A stretch of DNA of 64,000 bases from Chlamydia trachomatis. GTDB taxonomy: Bacteria > Chlamydiota > Chlamydiia > Chlamydiales > 2-12-FULL-49-11. The notes under the pieces were generated by a model. It did not search any database and was not told the DNA's origin. It saw only the letters and a list, made by a program, of their open reading frames with translations. The translations under genes and the position numbers were made by a program. Positions 4,508 to 50,557 of this stretch are shown in pieces. The DNA lies in NCBI GenBank assembly GCA_945872565.1, contig CAMBZN010000002.1, positions 71,556 to 135,555 on the forward strand. The letters are read 5' to 3'. How positions within the stretch are numbered: the stretch's first letter is position 1; every line of letters begins with the position of its first letter.

Positions 4508-6417
4508 CTCCGCCCATAGTCTAATTCTGTCACAAGGGGAACTTTTGGAACATCTTTTAGTTTGGGAGTTATTCGTTTTGCAACAGTATAATCTCTAAGC
4601 ACCGGATCTAAATGTCTTATATCAACAGGAAGATAGGAAATGATCGGCTCATCACTGTGAGGATCGTAAGTACAAACAGTTGTCTTTAAAAACTCCTGGT
4701 CATTTCTCTTAGGAAATTGTGGTTTATAATGAGAGCCTCTAAATTCATCCCTCATTAACGCCCCTTTTGCGATGCAAAGGGCAATTTCTAACATATATCC
4801 GAACTGGTTAGCAAAATGAAGGGTTTGATTTAAATGATGCCCTTTATCGTCCAGAGTAATATTTTGAAATCTTTCTCTAATCTCTTTAATTTTTTTAATA
4901 GCAAGCTTTAAGCCAGCATTAGTTCTTACAATCGTCACATTAGAAATCATAATCGCAGCAAGCTCATCATGGAGTTTATAAACATTTTCAACCCCATCTC
5001 TCTCTAATAAATTTTGCTTGATGGCAAGCTCATGGGCTATTGCCTCATCAAAGATTCCTTCGTTTACCTTACTATTTTTATGAGCAATATCGTCAATATA
5101 AAAAACCATTTCATTTGCAGCAACCATCCCACCAAATACACATGAAAGCAATGAATTTGCACCAAGCCTATTGGCCCCATGGTATTGAAACTCACATTCT
5201 CCAGCAGCAAATAACCCTTTGATGTTAGTCATCTGTCGATACCGTGTAAATCGATCCTCATCACCAGTTGCTGGCCAATCAATCCACATCCCCCCCATCG
5301 TATAATGCACAGCAGGGAAAATTTTCATCGGAACTTTTCTTGGATCTTCTCCGGTAAATTTTTGATAAATCTCTAAAATAGACTCAAGCTTATGCAACGC
5401 CTTTTCATTAAGATGGGTCACATCAAGATAGACTTGTTTTTTTCCATCAATTCCAAGTCCTGCCTCCTCCACAACTTTAATAATATACCGAGAGGCAACA
5501 TCCCGCGGAACAAGGTTTCCAAATGTTGGGAACAATTCTTCTAAAAAGTACCAAGGCTGTCCTGTAGTTCCGCATGCTACAAACTTTCCATCAGGACCTT
5601 CTATGCTTTTTGTACTATCTCCATAGACCCAAATTCGCCCTCCCTCACCACGTGCTGATTCTGACATCAAGCGAAGCTTATCCTCTCCTGGAATTGCTGT
5701 TGGATGAATCTGAATAAATTCAGGATTTGCAATTTTCACCCCTTGCATAAAAGCTCTTCCATTTGCCGCCCCTGTACAAATGGTTGAGTTGGTAGAATAT
5801 TTAAAAACAACTCCATTTCCACCAGTTGCTAGAAGCACTGCATCTGCCTTTAACGATGAAATTTTCGAAGTATGCAAATCCATAATGACAACGCCCCGAG
5901 TAATTCCATCGTCATCAATAACAGCCCTCATAAACTCATGATGTTCATATTTTGTGATTTTTTTAGCTACCTCAAACCTTCTTACCTGCTCATCGAGGGC
6001 ATAGAGCAACTGTTGCCCCGTTGAGGCCCCTGCAAATGCAGTTCGCTTGTACAGTGTCCCTCCAAATCTTCTAAAATCAAGATGCCCATCTGCCCTTCTA
6101 TTAAAAGGGACTCCCAACCGATCAAACATCCGAATAATTGTAGGGCCATTATAGCACATTTCTAAAATAGGGGGCTGATCCCCTAAAAAATCGCCTCCTT
6201 TGATCGTATCATAGGTATGAATGTCAACTGAATCCATTTCTCCCATCAAGTTAATAGCGACATTTATCCCTCCTTGGGCGCATACGGAATGGGATCGTTT
6301 TACATTGGTAAGGCTTACTAAATCCACTATACAGCCAAGATCAGCAAGCTTCATCGCAGCAGATAAGCCGGCAAGTCCTCCCCCAATTACAACTACTTTT
6401 TTTGGTCGATCACTCAT
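4504..6417 (-). CDS. sdhA: Succinate dehydrogenase flavoprotein subunit
   Basis: 'VVVIGGGLAGLSAA' FAD fold, 'RSHSVCAQGGIN' (covalent-FAD His region), 'HYTMGG', 637 aa. Confidence 0.95.
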   Translation of the reverse strand: MSDRPKKVVVIGGGLAGLSAAMKLADLGCIVDLVSLTNVKRSHSVCAQGGINVAINLMGEMDSVDIHTYDTIKGGDFLGDQPPILEMCYNGPTIIRMFDRLGVPFNRRADGHLDFRRFGGTLYKRTAFAGASTGQQLLYALDEQVRRFEVAKKITKYEHHEFMRAVIDDDGITRGVVIMDLHTSKISSLKADAVLLATGGNGVVFKYSTNSTICTGAANGRAFMQGVKIANPEFIQIHPTAIPGEDKLRLMSESARGEGGRIWVYGDSTKSIEGPDGKFVACGTTGQPWYFLEELFPTFGNLVPRDVASRYIIKVVEEAGLGIDGKKQVYLDVTHLNEKALHKLESILEIYQKFTGEDPRKVPMKIFPAVHYTMGGMWIDWPATGDEDRFTRYRQMTNIKGLFAAGECEFQYHGANRLGANSLLSCVFGGMVAANEMVFYIDDIAHKNSKVNEGIFDEAIAHELAIKQNLLERDGVENVYKLHDELAAIMISNVTIVRTNAGLKLAIKKIKEIRERFQNITLDDKGHHLNQTLHFANQFGYMLEIALCIAKGALMRDEFRGSHYKPQFPKRNDQEFLKTTVCTYDPHSDEPIISYLPVDIRHLDPVLRDYTVAKRITPKLKDVPKVPLVTELDYGRR

Positions 6418-7451
6418 TAACTATAATATCCTGTGCTAAAAAAATAACTTCCCCAAATAGAAAGCATTCCCAATGCTGTTAATATAAATGCAAGCCCATA
6501 GGCAAAATTCACCCATGCATTTTGTGATTTCCTTGAAAGTAAAAGTCCCCAAGTGATACAAAAAGTCCAAAACCCATTACTTCCATGAAACACCGCCGCA
6601 AGGACAAAAAGGGTATAGAAAACGCACATCCACACACTTTGAAACGCCTCACGAACATTTAACAAAATCAGATCAGCAGATTTTTTTGATGCGACAATGA
6701 CCTCTTTTGCCCCCAGCTTAAAGTGTGTCAATCCTTTGTAAAACATTTCCTTATCATGAAAAGCCGCCTGACTTTTAAACGCTGCATCTGCTTCAAGATT
6801 GTACCTGTCGCTGCCAATGACCCCTGTTTTTTTCATCTCTTCCAACCGTTTGTCCACCATAAGAGCCTTATTTTGCAATAGAGCTAAACTCTCCCGTTCC
6901 TTGTCGATCAAATCCTGACTATATATTTTCACCTGTAAATCTGCAGCCACTTTATAAAGACCTGGATCCACTGTATACTTTCCAAATGCCATACTTTGAG
7001 AGCCTAAATGCACTTTATAAGGATACATGACAAAACGCATTTGAATTACATGTAAAATAATACCAAAAAGGATGATCCAGGCAGAAATCCTTTGCATCGA
7101 ATAGGCTCTGTTTCTTTCATATTTTTGTGAAGTTGCCTTTCCTCCCCTACTGCGAACATTTCCCTGAGATGAGAGCATGTACCACACGCCCCAAATTGCA
7201 TGAATAGCCATCGGCACCCCAAGAAGAATGATCTCTACTAGCGGTAAATAGGGAATGCTGTGCAAGAAATTAACACTATTTACAAACCACATTACATTGT
7301 TACCGAAAAAAATCGCAGCTTGTGAGTTGGTAAACAAATGCTCCATTAAAAAGATCAAAAACCACAAGCCCATTAAAGATTGGAGCCTTCTCCAAACAAA
7401 TGCTTTTGGCACCAATCGCGTAGGTATTACTGCAGCCATATACAACCTCAT
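6417..7451 (-). CDS. sdhC: Succinate dehydrogenase di-haem cytochrome b subunit (B. subtilis type) with a large soluble insertion
   Basis: Five hydrophobic helices and four His in haem-ligand contexts ('MEHLF', 'AIHAIWG', 'ILHVIQ', 'VFHGSNG'). Position is upstream of sdhA. 344 aa versus about 200 aa for the B. subtilis protein. Confidence 0.8.
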   Translation of the reverse strand: MRLYMAAVIPTRLVPKAFVWRRLQSLMGLWFLIFLMEHLFTNSQAAIFFGNNVMWFVNSVNFLHSIPYLPLVEIILLGVPMAIHAIWGVWYMLSSQGNVRSRGGKATSQKYERNRAYSMQRISAWIILFGIILHVIQMRFVMYPYKVHLGSQSMAFGKYTVDPGLYKVAADLQVKIYSQDLIDKERESLALLQNKALMVDKRLEEMKKTGVIGSDRYNLEADAAFKSQAAFHDKEMFYKGLTHFKLGAKEVIVASKKSADLILLNVREAFQSVWMCVFYTLFVLAAVFHGSNGFWTFCITWGLLLSRKSQNAWVNFAYGLAFILTALGMLSIWGSYFFSTGYYS

Positions 7452-7495
7452 TTGTATAGTAAATTCTACAGTCTACATAAATCACTATTTAGAAT

Positions 7496-8260
7496 TCAAC
7501 AAAAGACTCGGCATCCATTTTCATACGTCTTAGAACAAATCTCTAAGAGAGTTACACCATAAAGATCGGCAATTGTTTGAGCAGTAACTACTATATTTGC
7601 TGGATGATTAGGTTTTCCTCGATATCCATGAGGGGAAAGCCAGGGCGAATCTGTCTCTATCAAGAGTTGATCTAAAGGTATTAAGCGGACGACCTCTTTA
7701 AGCTCCAAGGATTTATTAAATGTGACAATCCCACTAATAGAAAGATAAAAGCCAAGATCAAGGGCAGCTTTTGCCTGCTCTGCATTGCCTGTAAAGCAAT
7801 GTATTACCCCTGTAAACGGAGGATACTCCGATACTGCTTCAAAGAGGTTTTTAAAAGCACCATCCCCTCGAACATGAAAAACTACCGGCAATTTTGCTTG
7901 GATTCCAAGCTCTATATACCTTCTGCAAACTCTTTTTTGGATGGCTATGTTATCTGGCTGAATAAAATCATCAAACCCTGTTTCACCAACTCCTACAATC
8001 TTGCCCTCTAGTGCCATCTTCTCAAAATACTTAAAAGTATCTTCGGTCTCTTTTTCTGCATCATGGGGGGTTGTTGAAGCAATATTTGCAACGATCTTTG
8101 GATACTTTTGCTCTAATAGCATTCCTTTTTCTAGTTCAGAGGCGCTAGTACAAACATTTATAATCCTAAACATTCCCAATTCTTTAGCTCTTTGAATTGC
8201 CCCTTCAGCATCCATAGGAAACCCTTCAGAAGTTAGGTGAGCATGAGAATCCATAATCAT
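7496..8260 (-). CDS. tatD: TatD-family metal-dependent hydrolase/DNase
   Basis: 'DSHAHL', 'GETGFD', 'VFHVRGD', 'IHCFTG', 'ETDSPWL'. Confidence 0.9.
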   Translation of the reverse strand: MIMDSHAHLTSEGFPMDAEGAIQRAKELGMFRIINVCTSASELEKGMLLEQKYPKIVANIASTTPHDAEKETEDTFKYFEKMALEGKIVGVGETGFDDFIQPDNIAIQKRVCRRYIELGIQAKLPVVFHVRGDGAFKNLFEAVSEYPPFTGVIHCFTGNAEQAKAALDLGFYLSISGIVTFNKSLELKEVVRLIPLDQLLIETDSPWLSPHGYRGKPNHPANIVVTAQTIADLYGVTLLEICSKTYENGCRVFC

Positions 8261-8325
8261 GAGTATATATCCCTTTTCTTAGAAAAATGTTTTCTATAGT
8301 ATAGGTATAAAAGGAGTTTTTTTCC

Positions 8326-9018
8326 ATGAGCATTTTTTTACGTTCCTACTCTGATTCAGATTTTTTCGGAAAACTGATCTTTGTCATTTTATTTATATTA
8401 TCAGTTACCTGTTGGACGGTTCTTATTCGAAAATTTCGCATTTTAAAAGCTGTGCGTAATTTTGGCAAACAAACGCAAGAGCAAATGCATCAAACCGACT
8501 TAAAGACCCTTTTGTTTCACGGTGAATTAATGGTCACAAAAAGCCCATTTTCCACAATCCTTGCGGCAATTTCTTCAAAAACATCTCAGATAATCAATAA
8601 AAACCGCCATTTCAAAGAAGGGAGCACGGTTTTTTTATCCCAAAGGGACATGCAAACAATTGAAGAATACTCCTCCATTACCATTTACCAAGAAGTCAAG
8701 CGTTTGGGCAATGACCTATTTATCCTTTCAACAATTGTTACTCTAGCTCCATTTGTCGGAATCCTAGGCACAGTGTGGGGGATATTACTTTGCTTAGGCG
8801 AGCTTCAAAAAGGGGGTTCAAGTTCATCATCTATTGTTCTCTCTGGCCTTTCCACCGCTCTTGCAACAACTGTCTTAGGCCTTGTGATTGCAATTCCGGC
8901 ACTCATTGCCTACAATTACTTGAAAAATTCCCTCCTTGATATAAGCGCAGAGATGGAGGGGTTTTCTCACGGGGTACTCTCAGAACTAGAACTACAGTAT
9001 AGACACGTTGAGGTATAA
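8326..9018 (+). CDS. tolQ: TolQ/ExbB/MotA-family proton channel protein
   Basis: Three TM segments. 'APFVGILGTVWGI' and 'LSTALATTVLGLVIAIPALIAYN' motifs. First gene of the tol-pal order. Confidence 0.85.
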   Translation: MSIFLRSYSDSDFFGKLIFVILFILSVTCWTVLIRKFRILKAVRNFGKQTQEQMHQTDLKTLLFHGELMVTKSPFSTILAAISSKTSQIINKNRHFKEGSTVFLSQRDMQTIEEYSSITIYQEVKRLGNDLFILSTIVTLAPFVGILGTVWGILLCLGELQKGGSSSSSIVLSGLSTALATTVLGLVIAIPALIAYNYLKNSLLDISAEMEGFSHGVLSELELQYRHVEV

Positions 9019-31662: not shown

Positions 31663-34173
31663 TTAATTGTCTCCAAAGGTCTGCTTGTCTACTCTTACAT
31701 CGTCTTCATATTTTTGAAATATTTTCTTCCTGCCGTCATCGAAATATTTATTAAAAATCCCATGCTTTAATCCATTCTTATATTCAGCCTCGAAAATCAA
31801 AATTCCATTTTCGTTATAGCTTTTTGCTAATCCATGTAGCAGGCCATTTTCGTATGTCTTAGAGTGCTTTATAGATCCATCATGATAATAGGCAATTTCC
31901 TCGCCGGTGGGAGCTCCAAGCAAATAAGGGGTCTTTATTTTTACAATCCCGTCTTTATAGAATTCCTTCACCTCTCCATTAGGAAGCCCTTTGGAAAAAC
32001 TTGCCTCACGTAACAAAACATTTTGATCGTTCCAGAACGTTGCCTTACCCTCCATTAAACCCTTCACCACTGTATACTCCTCAGCAAGGGCCCCATTGAT
32101 GTGAAACTTTTTTACCCGCCCTTGCAAAAACCCTCCAACATTGTACCCTTCTATATATTTAACAAGACCATACTGCGGATCAAGGGGATAAAAAACTCTT
32201 ATTAATCCCTCTCGAACACCATTTTTATATGTCACTTCTGTGCTAACACCCTTTTCATTTTTGACATAAAGAAGCCCATCTATCTCTCCATGGTGATAAT
32301 TTGCCGCTTCAATGACTTCTCTTTCATCATCACAAATCCGTTTTGGTCCGTGCATCTGATCGTCTTTATAGGTAATTAGGCTTTTCACTTCTCCATCTGG
32401 ATAAAAAATCTTCTGCTCACCGTCTCTTTGTCCCTTTTCATTGTAATTTTCAACTATGGCCTTAACTTCACCGTCTGCATCAAAATACTGAATCTGCTTG
32501 CCCACTAAATTTCCAGCCTGATATTGCCGATGATACGAAGGTCTGCCACTTTTGTAAAAACCGCTAGATTCCCCATCTAATTGACCATCATTATATCTTT
32601 CCAAGTATGCTTGCGTTCCATCGTTATAGTAGCCATAAGACTTGCCGTCGAGTTTTCCGTTCCTATACTCTTCCTTTTTATATAAAACATCCTTCTCATA
32701 GTAAAAAACACTCGGACCATGCTGCTTACCAGCCAAAAATTTCCCTTGATAACGAGGAGATCCATCTTCAAAATAATCGAAATATTCTCCATTATGCGCC
32801 CCATCCTTCATCTGAATAAAAGCTTTAACAATTCCCGTATCATAGTAATGAATTACTTCCCCATCTAAAACTCCATCCTTATAAGTTAATGAAGTACATA
32901 AGGCCCCATTTTCATGATAAATTTTATGTTCACCATCGAGATTTCCATTTTTAAACAGTTCTTTCTTTAATAACTGGCCGTTTTCAAACCAAGAGAAACA
33001 ATCTCCATCTGCAACACCCGCTACGTAATTCCCTTGATATCGTTTATTGCCGTTACTGTAATATTCTTCAATAAGTCCATGAAATTTCCCTTCTTTATAA
33101 TGAAAGGATTTCATGATATTGCCATTATCATAGTAGGTAAGAAAGTCTTTTTCAAAATCACTTCCCTGCTTGAAGTAATTTGCAATAAGCACCCCCTGCT
33201 CGTTGTACTCCTTGATAGAATCTAGTAATCGACCGTTTTTGTCATACTTAGCTAGGAATAGAATTTGTCCTTTGCTATTTTTTCTAAAATGTTCCCCAAC
33301 AGGTAATCCATTTTTAAACTCACTAATTCCGAGAATCTCCCCACCTTCAGAATACTCAAATTGCTTTCCTTGAAGTTTGTCCTCAAAATAGACATGGTAA
33401 TTTTTTTTATTTCCGCCAGGGAAAAATAAGACATGATCCCCATGCTTTAGACCATTTTTATATCTTTGCGTAGAACTTAACGATCCATCTTCAGAATAAA
33501 AAATTAACGCAGCTTTTGTTTCAGTGTCGTTAAGTTCCCCATTACTAAAATAACGGTGCGACGATATTACCCCCGATTCATGCCAAGTAACTCCCATCCC
33601 TTGTAAGATCCCCTTCTCGTAAGGCCATTTGCTCACTCTTTTTCCTGATGGGTAATAGGACCAAAATTCTCCTTCAATCTGACCATTTACATAGAAACAC
33701 TCCGTCTTTTTTTCACCGTTTTCATAAAACTCCTCAACCTTTCCAGAAAGAGCCCCATTCTCATAGTGTGCTACTTTTTCCTCCTTCCCATTTCTATACA
33801 ACTCTACGGCAAGTCCATGTTGCACACCATTTTGGTACTCCTTCACAGACTGCACAGAAGATGGAGAATAAAAAGATACAGACGTTCCATGAGGAACTAC
33901 TTCTAAAACTCCCCCCATTTCCACTTCAGTTACATCCTCTTCAAGAATTAAGGTACCAGATTCGGAAAGAATACAACGCTTTACAGCAACGTCCTTCACC
34001 CCCTCTTTTTGATAAAATTGAATGATATGATCCTGTCCATTAAAGTGCCTTTTTAAAATAACCGGTTTCCAATCAGGGGCTTTCAATTTTAATGGCTCTT
34101 TAAGGGAAAGCTCCAAACCAAATGCACTAGCGCATAAACAGACTAATAATACACAAATTTTTTTAACATTCAT
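31663..34173 (-). CDS. Secreted MORN-variant / YwqK-type repeat protein (836 aa)
   Basis: Signal peptide 'ICVLLVCLCASAFG'. Some thirty degenerate repeats of the form 'Y..G....G....YY.NG......Y..G...G'. Confidence 0.75.
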   Translation of the reverse strand: MNVKKICVLLVCLCASAFGLELSLKEPLKLKAPDWKPVILKRHFNGQDHIIQFYQKEGVKDVAVKRCILSESGTLILEEDVTEVEMGGVLEVVPHGTSVSFYSPSSVQSVKEYQNGVQHGLAVELYRNGKEEKVAHYENGALSGKVEEFYENGEKKTECFYVNGQIEGEFWSYYPSGKRVSKWPYEKGILQGMGVTWHESGVISSHRYFSNGELNDTETKAALIFYSEDGSLSSTQRYKNGLKHGDHVLFFPGGNKKNYHVYFEDKLQGKQFEYSEGGEILGISEFKNGLPVGEHFRKNSKGQILFLAKYDKNGRLLDSIKEYNEQGVLIANYFKQGSDFEKDFLTYYDNGNIMKSFHYKEGKFHGLIEEYYSNGNKRYQGNYVAGVADGDCFSWFENGQLLKKELFKNGNLDGEHKIYHENGALCTSLTYKDGVLDGEVIHYYDTGIVKAFIQMKDGAHNGEYFDYFEDGSPRYQGKFLAGKQHGPSVFYYEKDVLYKKEEYRNGKLDGKSYGYYNDGTQAYLERYNDGQLDGESSGFYKSGRPSYHRQYQAGNLVGKQIQYFDADGEVKAIVENYNEKGQRDGEQKIFYPDGEVKSLITYKDDQMHGPKRICDDEREVIEAANYHHGEIDGLLYVKNEKGVSTEVTYKNGVREGLIRVFYPLDPQYGLVKYIEGYNVGGFLQGRVKKFHINGALAEEYTVVKGLMEGKATFWNDQNVLLREASFSKGLPNGEVKEFYKDGIVKIKTPYLLGAPTGEEIAYYHDGSIKHSKTYENGLLHGLAKSYNENGILIFEAEYKNGLKHGIFNKYFDDGRKKIFQKYEDDVRVDKQTFGDN

Positions 34174-39815: not shown

Positions 39816-39838
39816 TCCTCAAAAAAAATAATAAATAT

Positions 39839-39911
39839 TGGAGTGTAACGGGATCGAACCGATGACCTCAACGCTGCCAGCGTTACGCTCTACCAATTGA
39901 GCTAACACCCC
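39839..39911 (-). tRNA. tRNA-Ala (anticodon GGC), CCA not encoded
   Basis: Reverse complement is GGGGTGTTAGCTCAATTGGTAGAGCGTAACGCTGGCAGCGTTGAGGTCATCGGTTCGATCCCGTTACACTCCA. It folds as a 7-bp acceptor stem with the G3:U70 Ala identity pair, anticodon loop CTGGCAG and T-arm GGTTCGATCC. Confidence 0.9.
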
Positions 39912-39966
39912 ACTATAGAGCAGAAGTATACCCGGCAGTGCCTATAAGGTCCAGAAAAATCACCCC

Positions 39967-41640
39967 TTATGAACTGCTGTTTTTCTCAATAGCTTCTAGA
40001 AAGGCTTGCAGTTGACCGGCCCTTGTAGGATGTCGCATCTTTCTTAAAGCTTTGGCCTCAATTTGCCTTACCCTTTCTCTTGTAACCTTAAAGTGAAGGC
40101 CTACTTCCTCAAGAGTTTTTGGTTTTCCGTCAATTAGACCAAATCGTTCAATTAGCACCGTTCGCTCTCTTTCAGTAAGAGAGTGTAGCACCTCGTTCAT
40201 TTTTTCTTTTAAAATCGAGTAGCCTGTTGCATCAGAGGGCGATTCTACAGAAGTGTCTTCTAAAAAATCTCCAAATTGACTCTCGCCGCTATCTCCAACT
40301 TCAGCTTGCAATGAAATTGGGTGTTGAGCGATCTTATAGATTTCACGCACCCGATCTGGGGTAAGGCCAAGTTCTTTGGCAAGCTCTTCTGGGGTTGGTT
40401 CTTTTCCAGTTTCCATCATGAGCTTTTTAGCACCTCGTAGCACTTTATTAATTGTTTCTATCATGTGCACAGGGATACGGATCGTTCTTGCCTGATCTGC
40501 AATAGCACGGGTCACAGCTTGCCGAATCCACCATGTTGCGTAGGTAGAAAATTTATACCCGCGACGGTATTCAAATTTTTCTACCGCCTTCATAAGGCCC
40601 ATATTTCCCTCTTGGATAAGATCAAGAAAGGAGAGCCCTCGATTGGTATACTTTTTTGCGATAGAAATCACAAGGCGAAGGTTAGATTCAACCATCTCTC
40701 GTTTTGCCTCACGGCTTTTGTCCATCCAACGTTGGAGCATTCGCACATCTTTTTTAAACTCATCAATTGTTCTACCGGCAGCAAGCTCTAATCTAATGAG
40801 CTTTTCTGTACTTGAGTAAAGCTTTGCACGAGCGAATCGATTTTTCTCTGCTCGGGGGATAAGTTCTGTGATCTCCTTTTCCAAGATTAAAAAAATGTCA
40901 TAGCTTGATAATACCACCTCTCCAAGATCTTCCACAATATCATATCTAAAGTGCATACGTCGCAAGTATGCCTGAACACGAATCCTACTTTTTTCTAATT
41001 CTTCTAAGACCTTTACTTTTTCTATTTTAGTAAGACTTGATTTTTTCACCTCACGAAGATAGGCGTCCTGCCTCTCATCTTCATCGCGCATCAGTCTATA
41101 GAGCTTAGGTAAACTGTCAAAAAACTTCTTCTTGTCAGGGATTTCCTTTTCTGTGACTATTTTATCAAAACGCTCTTTTCCTTTATTTAAAAACTCAATC
41201 ATGGAAAGAGTTTCTGAAATTGCATACCTAAAGCGTAAAATGATTTTTTCTACTTGAATTTGCGCTTTTTCAATACGCTTAGAAATCTCTACTTCCTCTT
41301 CACGGGTAAGCAGTGGCACCGATCCCATCTCTTTTAGATACATCCTAACAGGATCATCTGAGGACCCCTCATTTCTTTTAGGGGCGGCATCAACTTCTTT
41401 TGCTTCTTTTTTTCGCTCTTTTTGGCGATCAACCTCTGCCTGATTGAAAATCTGAATGTCCATCCCGCTTAAAAAAATCAATATTTGATCGATGTCTTCT
41501 GCGGAATCAAAACTCATTGGAAGAATATCATTAATTTCTTCGTAGGTGATATATCCTTGATCTTTTGAGATAGCAACAATTTCTTCAATCTTTTGCTGGT
41601 ATTGAGGATCAAACGTTTTTGAACTTTGAGAATCGGACAT
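39967..41640 (-). CDS. rpoD: RNA polymerase primary sigma factor (sigma-70/sigma-66 type), downstream copy, 557 aa
   Basis: All regions present: 1.1, 1.2 ('[11 protein letters not shown]'), 2 ('[72 protein letters not shown]'), 3 and 4.2 ('[19 protein letters not shown]'). Confidence 0.95.
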
Positions 41641-41670
41641 AAAAACCTATACCCATAGAGGAATTAGCCC

Positions 41671-41699
41671 ATCCTAGCATTTTAAATTTATATTGTAAA
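41671..41699 (-). promoter_or_regulatory. Promoter candidate in the 80-bp spacer between the two rpoD copies
   Basis: Minus strand reads TTTACA-N17-TAGGAT, ending about 30 nt upstream of the downstream rpoD ATG. Confidence 0.3.
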
Positions 41700-41720
41700 T
41701 TAGTTAATACTATTTATTAT

Positions 41721-43382
41721 TTAAGCACATTTAGCCTTATTTGCCACTTCTAAAAATGCCTGCAACTGAGAAGACCTTGTTGGATGCCGCATTTTTCGGA
41801 GCGCCTTTGCTTCAATTTGCCTTACTCGTTCACGGGTAACTTTGAAATATACACCCACCTCTTCAAGAGTTTTTGGCTTTCCATCAATGAGCCCAAATCT
41901 TTCGATTAAAACCGTTCTCTCTCTTTCTGATAGGGAGGACAAAACTTCATTGATTTTATCTTTCAAAATGGTATAGCCAGTTGCATCTGATGGCGATTCC
42001 GCCCCAGTATCTTCCAAAAAGTCTCCAAATTGACTATCGCCTGTTTCTCCCACCTCTGATTGTAATGAAATGGGATGTTGAGCTATTTTATAGATTTCCT
42101 GAATTCGATCAGTACTAATGCCTAAGATTTTAGAAAGTTCTTCAGATGTCGGCTCCTTGCCTGTTTCCATCATCAACCTTTTTGCCCCTCGAAGCACTTT
42201 ATTGATTGTCTCTATCATATGAACTGGGATTCTAATTGTCCTTGCCTGATCTGAAATCGCCCGTTGCACTGCCTGCCTTATCCACCAAGTTGCGTAGGTA
42301 GAAAACTTATACCCTCTGCGGTACTCAAATTTCTCAACAGCCTTCATAAGACCCATATTCCCCTCTTGGATCAAGTCCAAGAAAGAAAGACCTCGATTGG
42401 TGAATTTTTTTGCAATGGAGATAACCAACCGAAGATTGGATTCAACCATCTCTTTTTTCGCCTCCTGGCTTTTATCAATCCATCTCTTGAGCATACGAAT
42501 ATCTTTTTTAAAGTCGGTTAAAGATCGGCCAGCAGCTAGTTCCTTTTTTCGTAGCTTTTGCTCAACAGATCGTAACTTAGCACGAGCAAACCGATTTTTC
42601 TCAGCTCGCGGTGCAAGCTCTTTCATTTCATTTTCAAGTTTTAAAAAGACATCATAGCTAGATAAAATCACCTCTCCAAAGCTTTCAATGATTTCATATC
42701 TGAAATGAAGGCGTCGTAAATAAGCTGCAGTTCGAATGAGGCTTTTTTCAATTTCCTCAGAAATTTTTGCTTTTTCAATTTTTGAAACACCCTCATCTTC
42801 TAACATTAGAAGGTAATGATAGAATTTCTCATCTTCATCACTCATAAGCTTATGCAGTTTAGGAAGCATCTGGTGGAACCGATTTTTATCAGTAATCTTT
42901 TTCTCTATCACAATTCTATCAAATCTTTCCTTTCCAGCATTCAAAAAATTGATGATTGACAGTGACTCAGAAACTGCATATCTAAAGCGGAGAATAATTT
43001 TTTCCGCTTGCATTTGTGCTTTTTCAATCCTTTTAGAGATCTCTACTTCTTCCTCTCTTGTTAGCAAGGGAGAAGAGCCCATCTCTTTTAGGTACATTCT
43101 TACCGGATCATCAGAAGTCCCTTCGGTTCTTTTAACAGCAAAGGTCTCTTTTGACTCCTTTACTCTTTCAATTCTTCGATCCACTTCTGTTTGATTTAAG
43201 ATTTCTACGTCCATTCCAATCAAATAAATAAGAATCTGATCTAACTCATCGCCTGAATCAATGGATAAAGGCAATGTATCATTTATCTCTTCATATGTAA
43301 TAAATCCCTGATCTTTAGCAATTGCTACGATCTCCTCGATTTTTTGATGATAGGAAATATCAAGCGTATTTTGCTCAGACAT
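41721..43382 (-). CDS. rpoD: RNA polymerase primary-type sigma factor (sigma-70/sigma-66 type), upstream copy, 553 aa
   Basis: Same full domain set. Region 2.4 reads '[25 protein letters not shown]'. Strong AAGGAGG RBS. Roughly three quarters identical to the neighbouring copy by eye. Confidence 0.93.
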
Positions 43383-43491
43383 AAATAAAAACCTCCTTTT
43401 GAAGGAGAAACTTTACCATTTTTATATAATATTGTCCATTCTTCATAGTTAAAAGGTGCAATAAAAATTCCCGTCAAGGTAAAATCAGAGT

Positions 43492-44088
43492 ATGTATATC
43501 AATAACCGACTACACCTTGCAGTTCAGCGTAAGATCATCCAACTAATAGGGGAAAACTGCTGCAAATTAGAGCACCGAATCAAAAATCATATCGCCGATA
43601 TCTACTGGGTGTCTCAAAACATTGTATTTGAGGTGCAATGTTCCCCCATCACTTTAAAAGAAGCTGTTTCCCGCACCAAAGATTTTGAAAATTTAGGAGT
43701 TGGTATCATCTGGATTTTACATCAAAAAACCTATAATAAAACCCACATGAATCCTGCCGAAAAATATTTAGTAACCGGAAAAAACGTCTACTATAGCAAC
43801 ATCGATCAAGGGGGTGATGGGATCATATTTGATCAAGAACAAGCCATTTTATTTAACAAACGGCTGCACAAAAGCTGCCCCAAACAAGTAAACCTGACCC
43901 TTGTCTATAAAAGTTTCTTTTCAAAAAAACTCAAATTCGAAGGGGCTGTTCAAAGAACAAATATTTTAAAAAGAATAGCCCTTCACCCCGAAATATTTAA
44001 GAAAAAAATGTCTTTTACCCTACAAATAATGCGACAAAGGGCGATCTACGCTTTTACCGCTTTAAAGTGGCATATCTCTTTAGGTTAA
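43492..44088 (+). CDS. CoiA-like (competence protein CoiA family) nuclease-domain protein
   Basis: 'ADIYWVSQNIVFEVQCSPITLKEAVSRTKDFENLGVGIIWILH' parallels the CoiA core ('..D....I.IE.QCS.....L..RT..Y...G..V.W.L'). Confidence 0.55.
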   Translation: MYINNRLHLAVQRKIIQLIGENCCKLEHRIKNHIADIYWVSQNIVFEVQCSPITLKEAVSRTKDFENLGVGIIWILHQKTYNKTHMNPAEKYLVTGKNVYYSNIDQGGDGIIFDQEQAILFNKRLHKSCPKQVNLTLVYKSFFSKKLKFEGAVQRTNILKRIALHPEIFKKKMSFTLQIMRQRAIYAFTALKWHISLG

Positions 44089-44631
44089 TATTTTTTCTGA
44101 AAAAAACCGCTTTTGTAAGATAGAGAAATATACAAAGATCCCAAGACCAATCAGTGCATAAACCATCTCTTTAATAGGAAAGAGTCGAGTAAGAGAGACA
44201 ACTGGATCTTTTTCAGAACCATACCAATAGCATTTCCAATCCCGATTCTTCATTTGCTCTATTGCAGCAAGGGCTCCCTCTTCAGAAAGATAGGGGCTTG
44301 TTTCAAAAAGATACTGGGATGTATGCTCCTGCACCCCCCTTGTATGAAATTTAAAATCGGCACAAATGACAAACCTTTCCTTTTCCATCTCTATCACTCC
44401 CCAGTCAAATATCTGGACGATAGAGGTGTTAGCTTGCTTGTTATAAATAAAATACTTCACAGCAAACCCTGCAAAAAGCCAAAGAAAAGTCAAAAGGGAG
44501 GCCATGACCAGAGCGGCCCATACATTTTTTGGAGTAATATATTCTTGAATTATCTTCATACAAACGTCCTTACAATTTTCTTTGACAAAAAGTCTATTCC
44601 CATTTATACTTTGTCTTGAAAATAAATTCAC
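44080..44631 (-). CDS. Two-TM membrane protein (TM, soluble beta region, TM; DUF3592-like layout)
   Basis: TMs 'VWAALVMASLLTFLWLFAGFAV' and 'VYALIGLGIFVYFSIL'. The family assignment is only a guess. Confidence 0.4.
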   Translation of the reverse strand: MNLFSRQSINGNRLFVKENCKDVCMKIIQEYITPKNVWAALVMASLLTFLWLFAGFAVKYFIYNKQANTSIVQIFDWGVIEMEKERFVICADFKFHTRGVQEHTSQYLFETSPYLSEEGALAAIEQMKNRDWKCYWYGSEKDPVVSLTRLFPIKEMVYALIGLGIFVYFSILQKRFFSEKILT

Positions 44632-46726: not shown

Positions 46727-47935
46727 ATGAAAAAATTCTTCTTTTCATTGCTCATTACAATTTCTGCCTCTTTGCAAGCTGCAGACAATGACAGCATGAA
46801 TTTAGAGGCTCTAAAAGAATGGATTGCAACAAAGCGAGCTCTAACTCTAGATGAGCGCGGCGGGGCATTATCCCTTAGTGCTGATTTTCATGTAGAGTAC
46901 ATTGCTCTTTCCGAGCAAAAAAATGGAATAAAAAATCTTGGATCGCAATCTTTAAACCCCTTTATTCCTTCAGATCAATTCGATATTGAGTTTAACTTTC
47001 TCCTTGATTACAGAACAGATATGACATGGGCATCTGCTAAAATTGAGTACGATAACAACATGGGGATCAACTTAGGAACATTTAATAGGATCTTTTTAGA
47101 AAGGGCCTTTTTTGGATTTCGTCTTGATGAAACAGAACTTTCCACTACCGATATCGAATTTGGAAGACGGTTTTTAAGCTATACCTTTGATTCCCAAATA
47201 CAGTTTGGGGCGCTAATGGATGGAATTTTATTGTTATACAACCAAACTACTGAGCTCTATGGCGATTTTTATATTTATGCAGCTCCATTTATTGTAAATG
47301 AAACTCTCTCTCATATTTCCTTTGTAGTTGAAACAGGTCTTTTAAACATTTTTAACACAGGGTTTTACGCAAAATATTCATTGATTGATTGGGCAACCCA
47401 TGACTATGAAGACCGGCTGTTAAATCTTGCTTTCAACTATTTAAATAGTCAGTTTCTCCTTGGCTATCGACTTCAAAATCCCTTTTTTGACGCTGTTACC
47501 ATCTTTTATGGTGCATTTTTAGTGAATGCTCTTGCTAAACCCTTTGAAATTCTTGACGGCCGGCTTGACAACCTTGCAGGGTATGTTGGTGTGTCCATGG
47601 GGGAGATTAGAAAGAAGAACGACTGGTCGCTAGACTTTAATGTCCAATTTGTCCAACCTCAGGCCGTCCCTTTTATAGATTTTTCTGGAATCGGTATTGA
47701 AAATCCTGAAAATATTGGATTATATACTCTCCTATCTGACGGGGGGGGGCTTGCAACAATTAAAGAAACTGCCGTTGCAAATAGCAATTACTGGGGTTTT
47801 AAACTCTCCTTTCTTTATGCTTTGCAAGACACAATCACCCTCTCTCAAAGTTTTTCTTTAACTAGACCTTTGATGGACGTGCATAATAAATTTGATTTTC
47901 AAAAGTATAAGCTTGAGTTAATCTATGCATTCTAA
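46727..47935 (+). CDS. Predicted outer-membrane beta-barrel protein / porin candidate
   Basis: Signal peptide 'LLITISASLQA|AD'. Alternating-hydrophobicity strands. C-terminal 'YKLELIYAF' (terminal Phe). Family not recognised. Confidence 0.6.
   Translation: MKKFFFSLLITISASLQAADNDSMNLEALKEWIATKRALTLDERGGALSLSADFHVEYIALSEQKNGIKNLGSQSLNPFIPSDQFDIEFNFLLDYRTDMTWASAKIEYDNNMGINLGTFNRIFLERAFFGFRLDETELSTTDIEFGRRFLSYTFDSQIQFGALMDGILLLYNQTTELYGDFYIYAAPFIVNETLSHISFVVETGLLNIFNTGFYAKYSLIDWATHDYEDRLLNLAFNYLNSQFLLGYRLQNPFFDAVTIFYGAFLVNALAKPFEILDGRLDNLAGYVGVSMGEIRKKNDWSLDFNVQFVQPQAVPFIDFSGIGIENPENIGLYTLLSDGGGLATIKETAVANSNYWGFKLSFLYALQDTITLSQSFSLTRPLMDVHNKFDFQKYKLELIYAF
47741..47749 (+). repeat. G9 homopolymeric tract inside the OMP gene
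   Basis: 'gac ggg ggg ggg ctt' encodes D-G-G-G-L at codons 338-342. It is the longest G/C run I found in the window. Confidence 0.95.
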
Positions 47936-47949
47936 TTAGTATCATTTGC

Positions 47950-48669
47950 ATGGACAAAAGTTATGTAAAATTGCATGAAGAGGGGTTTCTTCCTGGCCCA
48001 AAAGAATCCAAAGAGGCATTTTTTTATAGAGTTTCCTTACTGCGAAAAATTGCTACTTGTCCGGCAAAATATATTACTGAAAAAAGTTTCAGGGGGCGGG
48101 TTTTTACCCCTGTGGACAGGGCTTACCTTTTGGTCGATCAGTGCAAACATTGCTTCTTTCAAGCCTCTTCTACAACCATTATAGAAGTAGAATCGGGCGT
48201 ATTCATTCCAATAATTAAAACCCCCTCAAAATTTTCCTCTTTATTTGTAAATTCCAAAGAGGTGATGGCCCATGAGCAAATCCACGCAAAAAGAGCACAA
48301 TTTGACGAGCCAAAATTTGAAGAAATCATTGCCTATCGATCTTCTAAATCCCATTTTAGACAACAGATCAGCCCGGTTATTTCTACAACTAAGCAGCAAG
48401 GTCTATTTTTTCTCCTCGTCCTTTTTATGCCAGTTTCATTATACCCCATTTTAGCTTTCATTTTATGGTGTTCTATTACATCTTTTACCCGTCAAAAGCA
48501 TATTCACAGGTGCCTTGCCCATCTTAAAAAAATTTCAAACTCTCCTGAAGAGATTTTGATTGCAATGACAGACAAAGAGATCCTTCAAATGAGCAAAAAC
48601 GGTGCTCTACCTAACGATCCTGATGAATTTCGCTGGCAATTTATTACCAAATTATTTATCCAATTATGA
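47950..48669 (+). CDS. Hypothetical membrane protein with an HExxH motif
   Basis: 'VMAHEQIHAKR' at 48271-48285. Paired hydrophobic segments 'GLFFLLVLFMPVSLYPILAFILWCSITSF'. Starts 14 bp after the OMP gene. Confidence 0.5.
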   Translation: MDKSYVKLHEEGFLPGPKESKEAFFYRVSLLRKIATCPAKYITEKSFRGRVFTPVDRAYLLVDQCKHCFFQASSTTIIEVESGVFIPIIKTPSKFSSLFVNSKEVMAHEQIHAKRAQFDEPKFEEIIAYRSSKSHFRQQISPVISTTKQQGLFFLLVLFMPVSLYPILAFILWCSITSFTRQKHIHRCLAHLKKISNSPEEILIAMTDKEILQMSKNGALPNDPDEFRWQFITKLFIQL

Positions 48670-49358
48670 AAAAGTTTTATCTACTAGTACTAACAGCTAT
48701 CATTGCAACCGCAGCTTTGTTCTCCTGGAAACGCCCCTATGAAGAAAACTTCGCTGCGGATGAAAAGTACTTAACCGACTATGATTTTCATTTTTTAGCC
48801 ATCTACGAAAAAAATGATCGATATTTTCATCAAAAAATTCAATCGATGTTAAATCAAAATTATGAAAACTACGAAATCACCATTTTTATTGATAAAGATT
48901 ACACAGCAGAAGCTGATAAAGTAAGGTTGAATGCTAAAAAGGCGTGTAAAGGGCACCTTGTAAACTTTGTTGAAATGGACCAAAATGCTCCAATAACATT
49001 AATCGTTAAAGATGCTACAGCAGGGTTGAAACAAGACACCGTCTTAGTCCTTTTGGGAAAAAACTGCATGTTCACAGAATCTTCTACCTTGAAGGAATTA
49101 AATTCCATTTACAAAAAGCAACCTACTGTTCAATTGACCTATTCTAACTTTATGAATTTTCCCACTTTTTTAATAAATAAAATGCCCCTTGACTATAGAA
49201 AGTCTAGTTTTAAAACAATTCTTGCTCGTTTGTTCAAAAATGGTACTCTGGATAAGCATTCAAGTGCTAACCTTGATCAAGCCTTTGCCTCTTTCGACGA
49301 GGTTACTCTTGAAAAAGCCCTCTATATCAACCACCCATTCTACCTTAAAGTTCGATGA
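48666..49358 (+). CDS. Membrane-anchored GT-A-fold glycosyltransferase-like protein (degenerate)
   Basis: N-terminal anchor 'LLVLTAIIATAALF'. 'FLAIYEKNDRYFHQKIQSMLNQNYENYEITIFIDKD' resembles the GT2 N-terminal motif. ATGA overlap with the upstream gene. Confidence 0.4.
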   Translation: MKKFYLLVLTAIIATAALFSWKRPYEENFAADEKYLTDYDFHFLAIYEKNDRYFHQKIQSMLNQNYENYEITIFIDKDYTAEADKVRLNAKKACKGHLVNFVEMDQNAPITLIVKDATAGLKQDTVLVLLGKNCMFTESSTLKELNSIYKKQPTVQLTYSNFMNFPTFLINKMPLDYRKSSFKTILARLFKNGTLDKHSSANLDQAFASFDEVTLEKALYINHPFYLKVR

Positions 49359-50557
49359 TATGCCCCGGAAATATGTAATTTCTTCCTGTACTTTGCAACT
49401 GTTCGTCTTGAACAAATGACTCCAGAAGCTTGCAGTAATTTCTTAAGTATTTCATCTGGGTAGGGCTCTTGCTTATTTTCTTGATCGATGATCTTTTGCA
49501 AAAGCTGTTTTGCTTTTTCTACAGTTTGATCACAAGATGGGGTAAGAGTTGGTCTAGAAAAAAAGTACCCTAAAGAAAAAAGGCCCGCTGGAGTCTGGAT
49601 ATATTTTTCTGATAAAATTCTAGAGAGGGTACTTTCAGAAATATCTAGATCCTGGATTACTTGCGCCCTTGATAGGACTTTTTTTTCGCCCTTGCCTAGC
49701 AAAAACGCCTCTTGCGCCTTTACAATTTTGCTCACAATCCACTCTAAACGGTTCTTCCTTTGGTGAAGCTGGTAGATAAATCGCTTTGCATCCATCTGCT
49801 TTTTTGCTGACCCTGCACGTCTTAACTGTACACTAGGATAAAACTCTTTGACAAACTCCAAATGCCACTTTCCATCAAATGAAAGAATCATCTCTGGAAC
49901 AATATGTTTTACTACCTCACAGTCAAACCTTCTTCCCGGAAAAGGATCTAACCGCTTAATCTCTTCAATGGCCCTTATAATCTCTTGAGTGGAAACATGG
50001 TTCATTTGAGATAACTTTTTGATATCACGGACTAAAAAGGCTTTGTAACCCTCTTTTAAGATGTCGGTGGCAAGCTGATGCACGCCTTCTTGTTCTTGCA
50101 ATTGTAATATCAATGCCTGCTGCGGGCTTGCCGCTGCAATTCCTACTGGGTCTAATTGCCATATTTTTTCAAGAACTGGTGTCACCTTGCCGGAATAAAA
50201 TCCATTATGATCTAAACTTGCAGCAATAGTTAACGCCTCTTCCTTTTCCCCCTGCAGAAAGCAAGTTTCAATTTGAAATGCCAAATGTTCATAAAGAGAC
50301 TCTTGCTGTTTTAATTGGTCATAGTCAACTTCATCAATAAAAAAAGCTTTGGATCGAACTTTTAAACCACCATTATCCTTACAATACTCTTGAACAAAAT
50401 CTGAAAAAAACACCCCTGGCAATGCAAGCACGTTTTGAATCATCTGGACGTCATATCCTTGCAAAAGACTTTGGTCGAGCTTAACAGCTACTTTTTGATT
50501 CATCTTCATAATTTCTTTATAGAAAATGCCGCTTAAACTGTAAAGAAAATTAATCAA
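49340..50557 (-). CDS. rpoN: RNA polymerase sigma-54 factor RpoN
   Basis: C-terminal HTH and RpoN box 'SRRTVAKYRKKL'. The start is uncertain: TTG at 50557 (track) or ATG at 50509/50503 ('MKMNQK...'). Confidence 0.88.
   Translation of the reverse strand: MINFLYSLSGIFYKEIMKMNQKVAVKLDQSLLQGYDVQMIQNVLALPGVFFSDFVQEYCKDNGGLKVRSKAFFIDEVDYDQLKQQESLYEHLAFQIETCFLQGEKEEALTIAASLDHNGFYSGKVTPVLEKIWQLDPVGIAAASPQQALILQLQEQEGVHQLATDILKEGYKAFLVRDIKKLSQMNHVSTQEIIRAIEEIKRLDPFPGRRFDCEVVKHIVPEMILSFDGKWHLEFVKEFYPSVQLRRAGSAKKQMDAKRFIYQLHQRKNRLEWIVSKIVKAQEAFLLGKGEKKVLSRAQVIQDLDISESTLSRILSEKYIQTPAGLFSLGYFFSRPTLTPSCDQTVEKAKQLLQKIIDQENKQEPYPDEILKKLLQASGVICSRRTVAKYRKKLHISGAYHRTLR

Follow-up and report, generated by a model that had tools for sequence, protein, structure and literature searches.

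Does a chlamydia with two complete genes for its primary sigma factor possess two different sigma factors, or the same one twice? Chlamydiae are treated as a model of minimal transcriptional control; Chlamydiaceae are described as having three sigma factors, environmental lineages as having two (PMC4652624). Environmental chlamydiae have been reported to lack sigma-28 and are left with sigma-66 and sigma-54; how the biphasic cycle is timed without sigma-28 is an open question. The 64,000-nucleotide stretch of contig CAMBZN010000002.1 analyzed here, called the window, carries two sigma-66 genes on its minus strand, the upstream copy B and the downstream copy A. A preliminary description of this DNA had already pointed to the pair. 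Our analysis revealed that copy A has kept the ancestral promoter-reading residues, whereas copy B carries two substitutions in the region 2.4 helix that are fixed in all of its orthologues. In the literature searched, whose coverage is incomplete because many papers are by subscription, so that absence is unproven, we found no prior report of a second sigma-66 or of a sigma-66 paralogue in Chlamydiota. The paper that released two of the pair-carrying metagenome-assembled genomes (MAGs) makes no mention of sigma factors. What appears to be new here is that a phylum regarded as having a small, invariable sigma set contains a primary-sigma paralogue whose specificity residue has changed.

Two sigma-66 genes and the helix of region 2.4

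The two genes and the codons on which the comparison turns are the following.

41721..43382, minus strand: copy B, the upstream gene, a diverged sigma-66 paralogue of 553 amino acids with regions 1.1, 1.2, non-conserved, 2, 3 and 4 (open reading frame and Pfam)
39967..41640, minus strand: copy A, the downstream gene, the conservative sigma-66 orthologue of 557 amino acids (open reading frame and Pfam)
42264..42266, minus strand: codon of Gln373 in copy B, corresponding to Thr440 of Escherichia coli sigma-70, in region 2.4 and facing promoter position -12 (translation and alignment)
42252..42254, minus strand: codon of Ser377 in copy B, corresponding to E. coli Ala444, one helical turn past 440 (translation)
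40510..40512, minus strand: codon of Thr377 in copy A, corresponding to E. coli Thr440, the ancestral state being kept (translation and alignment columns)

The observation of two intact primary-type sigma genes is confirmed. The genes lie head to tail with a gap of 80 bp, and both reading frames matched exactly the coordinates, lengths and strand given in the preliminary description. The full set of sigma regions that it had read in both copies was also recovered, since the Pfam domains Sigma70_r1_1, r1_2, r2, r3 and r4 all scored above cutoff in A and in B. The two proteins share 76% identity over 549 amino acids with a single one-residue gap (BLASTP), and the DNA of the two genes is approximately 70% identical. 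Both exceed the curated cutoff of 779 bits for NF004562, the NCBIfam equivalog of chlamydial sigma-66, with 1002.3 bits for A and 928.2 bits for B. Domain content, curated score and phylogenetic placement assign both copies to group 1 sigma-70, that is, to chlamydial sigma-66. Identity with the sigma of the MzaA anti-phage system (NF041931) was considered and rejected, as the scores of A (361 bits) and B (348 bits) against a cutoff of 800 reflect generic sigma-70 similarity only. Both copies resemble the known chlamydial sigma-66 (RpoD/SigA; C. trachomatis CT615) in their region 1.1-4 architecture and in the chlamydial non-conserved region; the difference is that there are two genes here, one of which has Gln for the invariant Thr440 and Ser for Ala444. 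The canonical promoter-reading residues (E. coli Q437, T440, H455, E458, R584, E585 and R588) are complete in A. B keeps Q437, H455, E458, R584, E585 and R588, and departs from the canonical set through Gln at 440, together with Ser at 444. Since A is the conservative copy, it is probably the holder of the essential housekeeping role.

In our judgment, the most telling difference between the copies, one absent from the preliminary description, is the pair T440Q and A444S in an otherwise invariant region 2.4 helix. Residues are numbered by ungapped alignment to the E. coli sigma-70 chain 3iyd_F, in which query residues 258-545 match chain residues 325-612 (offset +67). Over regions 2.3-2.4, all 7 A orthologues share one 45-residue stretch with the distant chlamydiae displayed (Chlamydia, Simkaniaceae and Rhabdochlamydia); apart from a final K/R in one other locus (L024), it is changed in B alone. 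T440Q (the Thr of QAVTR) and A444S (the Ala of AIADQ) are present in 8/8 B orthologues, and R436K (the Arg of WWIRQ) in 3/8. Every A orthologue (7/7) and every single-copy chlamydial sigma (65/65) has Thr at position 440 and Ala at position 444. We also surveyed diverse bacterial primary-type sigmas, taking the best 150 representatives from a library clustered at 50% identity, 147 of which contained the motif. Of these 147 sigmas, 141 have Thr at position 440, 5 have Ser, 1 has Val and none has Gln. Gln occupies position 437 in all 147, whereas at position 444 we counted 142 with Ala and 5 with Ser.

In E. coli sigma-70, the side of the helix that is turned to the major groove at -12 bears both residue 437 and residue 440. 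A promoter mutated from T:A to C:G at -12 is known to be suppressed by two sigma-70 substitutions only, Q437H and T440I, and R436 mutants bind duplex DNA from -41 to -12 more weakly (PMC2613000). Changes at these residues alter the preferred base at -12 (PMC2613000, PMC8321222). Residue 444 should lie on the same face as 440, since it is located one helical turn beyond. The change in B thus concerns the same position 440 and the same helix face as the Q437H/T440I mutants. Those are laboratory mutants, however, and the T440L/I changes of Carsonella are erosions in reduced endosymbionts. In contrast, the change in B is to Gln, stands in a second copy beside an unchanged primary sigma, and is fixed clade-wide under purifying selection.

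Between the A and B of the window there is no difference in the region 4.2 recognition helix (which reads -35), in the extended -10 residues (VHMIET) or in the aromatic melting residues, in agreement with the earlier claim of identical protein in region 4.2. The other fixed changes on the B stem at otherwise invariant sites are Y394F, K469R and E516D (E. coli numbering), and Q223A (A numbering), which lies in the non-conserved region at a site invariant elsewhere. The non-conserved region holds 5 of the 15 fixed B-stem changes.

Group 2 sigma factors, which are primary-like, are non-essential and serve in particular conditions, include RpoS of proteobacteria, SigB-SigE of cyanobacteria, HrdA/C/D of Streptomyces and SigB of mycobacteria. 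In RpoS, the residues equivalent to 437/440, together with region 3.0, set the -12/-13 preference. Copy B is comparable to group 2 sigmas in that it is a paralogue coexisting with the primary sigma and nearly identical to it in regions 2-4 (identity 0.92, 0.81 and 0.82 for regions 2, 3 and 4, respectively). It probably also resembles them in using the same general promoter type with subtle -10 differences. Group 2 sigmas usually lack region 1.1, or have it reduced, a feature that is typical and not universal; B keeps a full-length region 1.1 (Sigma70_r1_1, 45.8 bits against a cutoff of 22.5) and the lineage-specific non-conserved region, and its N-terminus is acidic, with a clade mean net charge of -10 over residues 1-66. 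Unlike group 2 sigmas, moreover, B is young enough to be the sister of the primary sigma within one family, and it stands in tandem with it.

Age, constraint and distribution of the pair

The amino-acid identity between A and B is lowest in region 1.1 and the non-conserved region, at 0.64 each; it is 0.81 in region 3, 0.82 in region 4, 0.90 in region 1.2 and 0.92 in region 2. The heavy divergence of region 1.1 and the spacer reported previously was therefore borne out, as were the many synonymous differences: third-codon-position identity is 0.37-0.51 in all regions, the blocks of identical protein included. The synonymous distance (dS) between A and B was either not computable or >2, that is, saturated. 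The values given here and for the nonsynonymous distance (dN) and their ratio (omega) are those of NG86, since YN00 failed for most pairs through saturation, and a dS >2 was taken only as saturated. Saturated dS and the low third-position identity everywhere indicate that the copies are old and have not been homogenized by gene conversion; they rule out both a recent duplicate and gene conversion. The divergence of region 1.1 and the spacer is by itself uninformative, because these are the fastest-evolving parts in both clades.

Purifying selection on both copies, which the preliminary description had presumed, was supported by omega of approximately 0.03 within each clade. The B of the window compared with that of L004 gave a dN of 0.046, a dS of 1.41 and an omega of 0.03, and the A of the window compared with that of L011 gave a dN of 0.058, a dS of 2.17 and an omega of ~0.03. 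B orthologues as a whole showed omega of ~0.02-0.04, and B is intact in 8 species, which rules out pseudogenization of B. For region 2, dN was 0.019 in B and 0.014 in A; for region 4, it was 0.021 in B and 0.044 in A; and for the non-conserved region, 0.149 in B and 0.115 in A.

Within this constraint the two copies have evolved asymmetrically. For the same species pairs, dN of B was 1.4-2 times that of A (0.083 vs 0.058, 0.127 vs 0.067 and 0.178 vs 0.091). Single-copy chlamydial sigmas are conserved to 90% or more at 354 alignment columns; the conserved residue has been replaced at 10 of these in A and at 34 in B, and by a parsimony count the B stem carries 15 fixed changes against 5 for the A stem. 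The excess rate of B is concentrated in the N-terminus: in the same five genomes, identity within the clade is 62% for B and 89% for A in region 1.1, and 92% and 93%, respectively, in region 4. The net charge of region 1.1 showed no notable difference between the copies, the means being -8.9 for A and -10.2 for B.

Each of three separate assemblies (Logan ERR3719163, ENA ERZ27280245 and ENA ERZ27280294) encodes the exact B and A proteins side by side. A B-then-A pair less than 300 bp apart occurs in L001-L003, which are one organism, and in five further species-level MAGs (L005, L007, L008, L009 and L011). L004 shows B and then the start of A before the contig ends, and in L012 the order is kept with the genes 534 bp apart. 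As the preliminary description had held, the pair is not a product of assembly, since other species carry it too and three assemblies of one organism agree on it. In the sponge MAG P_S1_9, B and A stand on separate contigs (L006 and L010). The A contig of this MAG (L010) opens with a direct repeat of ~75 bp (1-80 and 166-240), which probably broke the assembly. On L006 (6678-8090), B is followed by an open reading frame of 145 amino acids, and A keeps its own promoter on L010, suggesting an insertion or rearrangement between B and A in P_S1_9.

The distribution was scanned with one genome per GTDB species. The other ~65 chlamydial loci, which span Chlamydia, Rhabdochlamydia, Simkaniaceae, Parachlamydiales and Anoxychlamydiales, hold a single gene within the fetched flanks, with L024 as the sole exception. 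Complete MAGs with the pair include O_S4.2_20 (GCA_022601435.1) and JBIKLZ01, besides the 188-192 kb contigs of this organism. Two of the pair-carrying MAGs, O_S4.2_20 and P_S1_9, are placed in Simkaniales, Ca. Parasimkaniaceae, by Data S6 of Dharamshi et al. 2022, and the single-copy genomes O_S4.2_102 and RIFCSPHIGHO2_12_FULL_49_11 belong to the same order and family (PMC9666466). Since pair-carrying and single-copy genomes are both found in Ca. Parasimkaniaceae, the duplication arose inside that family, in a branch of low guanine-plus-cytosine (GC) content (35-38%; 34-41% in the window) that occurs in lakes and sponges. The lakes sampled include Lake Mendota and a series of stratified lakes.

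A neighbor-joining tree of 80 sequences, which is distance-based and built on one protein, placed the A-type genes in one clade and the B-type genes in another, the two being sisters nested among single-copy Simkaniales genes. All of 100 bootstrap replicates recovered the A clade and the B clade, and 95 of them grouped the two together. The sister relationship of the clades indicates one old duplication. The age proposed by the preliminary description is thus upheld by saturated dS and by the split of the A and B clades before at least 8 species-level lineages diverged; the comparison with relatives that it had recommended showed that both copies are retained across the pair-carrying lineages. 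Identity to the single-copy genes of the closest lineages is 78-83% for A and 72-75% for B. It is close to certain that the duplication is old, retained, constrained and asymmetric.

A separate tandem rpoD pair was observed in L024 (CANLTW010000001, MAG ZE-3nov15-36), which belongs to a different chlamydial lineage, at 4965-6653 and 6817-8514. Region 2.4 is the same in its two copies, which differ at 9 residues elsewhere, with a dN of 0.008 and a dS of 0.24-0.37; this pair is much younger and independent. Its close relatives L025-L027 and L030-L032 have one copy within the fetched flanks, and the sequence ahead of the downstream copy in L024 is a different one, with AAAGGAGA as a strong Shine-Dalgarno sequence. 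Because L024 has its own, younger pair, tandem duplication of sigma-66 may be recurrent in environmental chlamydiae.

Expression signals of the two copies

Each gene is preceded by its own putative signals, and a tRNA gene follows copy A.

43410..43438, minus strand: predicted promoter of B, TGGACA, a 17-nt spacer with TG, and TAAAGT (consensus scan and conservation)
43392..43398, minus strand: strong Shine-Dalgarno sequence of B, AAGGAGG, 9 nt before the ATG (sequence)
41671..41699, minus strand: predicted promoter of A, within the 80-bp spacer, TTTACA, a 17-nt spacer with TG, and TAGGAT (consensus scan and conservation)
41646..41649, minus strand: weak Shine-Dalgarno-like TAGG of A (sequence)
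39838..39912, minus strand: tRNA-Ala(GGC), 54 bp downstream of A (ARAGORN; Rfam RF00005, 60.1 bits)

Upstream of 8/8 B orthologues we found TAGACA, TGGACA or TTGACT, followed by a 17-nt spacer ending in TGn and by TAnnnT. The element TAGACAATATT...TGnTAnnnT also precedes the single-copy gene in the sister lineage (L075, L078, L015, L020 and L021); the predicted promoter was therefore copied along with the gene. In 7/7 A orthologues, AATTTACAaTATT...TGn is followed by TAGGAT, TAGTAT or TAATAT with a 17-nt spacer, and this putative promoter is kept both in L012, in the 534-bp spacer, and in L010, where A lies on another contig than B. Consensus promoter-like sites were not above the shuffled expectation (12 found against 9.6 +/- 3.0); support for both predicted promoters therefore comes only from their conservation across species. 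The earlier remark on promoter-like hexamers thus holds for the pair of elements before each gene, which is conserved across species, and not for the number of such sites.

The contrast in ribosome-binding sites described previously, AAGGAGG before B and a weak TAGG before A, is kept in the orthologues: all B orthologues have a GGAG core ahead of the ATG, or a GAGG/GGGA variant in L007, and a weak TAGGT is conserved in all A orthologues. No terminator-like hairpin was found on the coding strand between B and A, nor between A and tRNA-Ala(GGC). Read-through from the B promoter into A is therefore plausible, and tRNA-Ala(GGC) may be co-transcribed with the sigma gene or genes. A hairpin before B that could sequester its Shine-Dalgarno sequence by pairing it with a pyrimidine tract upstream (43392-43408, minus strand; TCTCCTT-CAA-AAGGAGG, then a T-run) is not proposed as functional, since its 5' arm starts 2 nt past the predicted -10, so that most of the hairpin would fall ahead of the transcription start and may be absent from the mRNA. 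Similar pairings of the Shine-Dalgarno sequence can be drawn by eye in the B orthologues of L004, L007, L008 and L012.

Possible role of copy B and its surroundings

On balance, we lean toward the explanation that copy B is a neofunctionalized tandem copy of sigma-66 with an altered -10 preference, a reading supported by the fixed changes in region 2.4, the constraint, the asymmetry and the separate, conserved expression signals. The primary sigma gene was duplicated in tandem, promoter included, in an ancestor within the low-GC part of Ca. Parasimkaniaceae (Simkaniales, environmental chlamydiae), and both genes have been retained under constraint since then. Copy A would have stayed the housekeeping sigma-66, and copy B passed through a burst of substitutions before being frozen by purifying selection. 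B would retain the parts needed for core RNA polymerase binding, -10 melting and -35 reading; its surface reading -12 was altered once and then fixed, and its autoinhibitory N-terminal region is evolving faster. The B-holoenzyme would then still use promoters of the sigma-66 type, with an altered base preference in the upstream part of the -10 element, and its regulon would overlap with that of A but be distinct from it. The ratio of A to B could be adjusted via the two promoters and the two very different ribosome-binding sites. The predicted promoters are probably active and B is likely to bind core polymerase; T440Q may change promoter choice, and for the specificity change itself we regard the chances as roughly even.

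Several points weigh against this explanation. The suppressor measured at position 440 is Ile, and Gln could be nearly neutral for promoter choice. The predicted promoters of both paralogues themselves have T at -12, and no promoter class with another base at -12 was seen. Most of the extra divergence of B lies in region 1.1 and the non-conserved region, which points to altered regulation no less than to an altered reading of DNA. The long branch of B could in principle distort its placement in a distance tree of one protein that is not model-based. Finally, the case is made from the sequences of genomes that are all uncultured MAGs.

The strongest competitor, which we consider unlikely, is that the copies diverged in expression only, serving the same promoters and being kept for different timing, level, stage, host or dosage. 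The separate conserved promoters and opposite Shine-Dalgarno strengths would fit such a division, as would the identity of region 4.2, VHMIET and the melting residues in the copies of the window, and the recent pair of L024, without a change in 2.4, suggests that duplication alone can be tolerated or favored. A difference in expression does not account, however, for the replacement, once, of two DNA-face sites that are invariant in 65/65 other chlamydial sigmas and its fixation in 8 B lineages, and it leaves unexplained a Gln440 seen in 0/147 diverse sigmas.

Alternatively, B may differ from A mainly in its regulation by protein partners, the candidates being GrgA, the RsbW-type anti-sigma factor that governs how much sigma-66 is available, or autoinhibition by region 1.1; we think this distinctly less probable again. 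It would agree with the low within-clade identity of region 1.1 in B (62%, against 89% in A) and with the 5 of 15 fixed B-stem changes, including Q223A, that fall in the non-conserved region. GrgA binds the non-conserved region of sigma-66 and is conserved in environmental chlamydiae (PMC10418237), and in C. trachomatis sigma-66 is a target of the Rsb network (PMC4552016). The rate of the non-conserved region in A is close to that in B, however (dN 0.115 and 0.149, respectively), which makes its divergence weak evidence, and partner regulation is compatible with the altered -10 preference that we favor, not exclusive of it.

It is highly improbable that B is a decaying copy or was acquired horizontally from another chlamydial lineage. 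Its longer branches and higher dN could be taken in that sense, but B is intact in 8 species with an omega of ~0.02-0.04, and its regions 2 and 4 are as constrained as those of A. A horizontal origin is likewise unlikely given the monophyly of A+B in 95/100 bootstraps and the ancestral promoter of the lineage that B carries. An artifact (mis-assembly, collapsed strains or a chimeric MAG) has a practically negligible probability: all sources are metagenome assemblies and we found no point in its favor, whereas the arrangement is identical in three separate assemblies, the B-then-A order recurs in other species from different lakes and from sponges, and collapsed strain variants are impossible for copies that are only 76% identical with saturated dS. 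Artifact, decay and horizontal transfer are very improbable even when taken jointly.

Returning to the neofunctionalized copy, a more specific and rather doubtful possibility is that B has arisen as a new sigma factor for development or for particular conditions in the Ca. Parasimkaniaceae branch, rebuilding a third promoter class after the reported loss of sigma-28 by way of a sigma-66 duplicate whose -12-reading residue was re-tuned. If so, B would drive a distinct set of genes, such as late or stage-specific genes. A second sigma-66 that has been kept for long under constraint, with its own predicted promoter and a fixed change at a residue that genetics has tied to promoter specificity, shows that chlamydiae as a phylum do not have an unchanging set of sigma factors, which may leave chlamydia specialists somewhat surprised. 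It provides a concrete candidate for an extra promoter class and an additional switch of gene control, and the T440Q/A444S pair amounts to a natural experiment in how position -12 is recognized. The significance of this case is limited in that other phyla commonly have sigma-70 paralogues whose specificity has shifted, and in that the organisms concerned here are uncultured.

The local gene order is similar to that of the CT609-CT617 region of C. trachomatis, with rpsT upstream and rpoN a few genes away. The rpoN gene (sigma-54; Sigma54_CBD and Sigma54_DBD) lies at 49340-50557 on the minus strand, ~6 kb upstream of B, so that three sigma genes fall within ~10.6 kb of the window. This proximity of rpoN and rpoD is probably ancestral synteny, as with CT609 (rpoN) and CT615 (rpoD) of C. 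trachomatis. Four open reading frames in this neighborhood have no Pfam match. Three of them, of 402, 239 and 230 amino acids, occupy 46727-49358 on the plus strand, from a ShlB/Omp85-like gene to rpoN, and their position is conserved in other assemblies of this organism; the fourth, of 183 amino acids (44080-44631, minus strand), adjoins a CoiA-like gene. On the other side of the pair, a protein of 836 amino acids (31663-34173, minus strand) matches the MORN-repeat variant PF07661 with an E-value of 8e-39.

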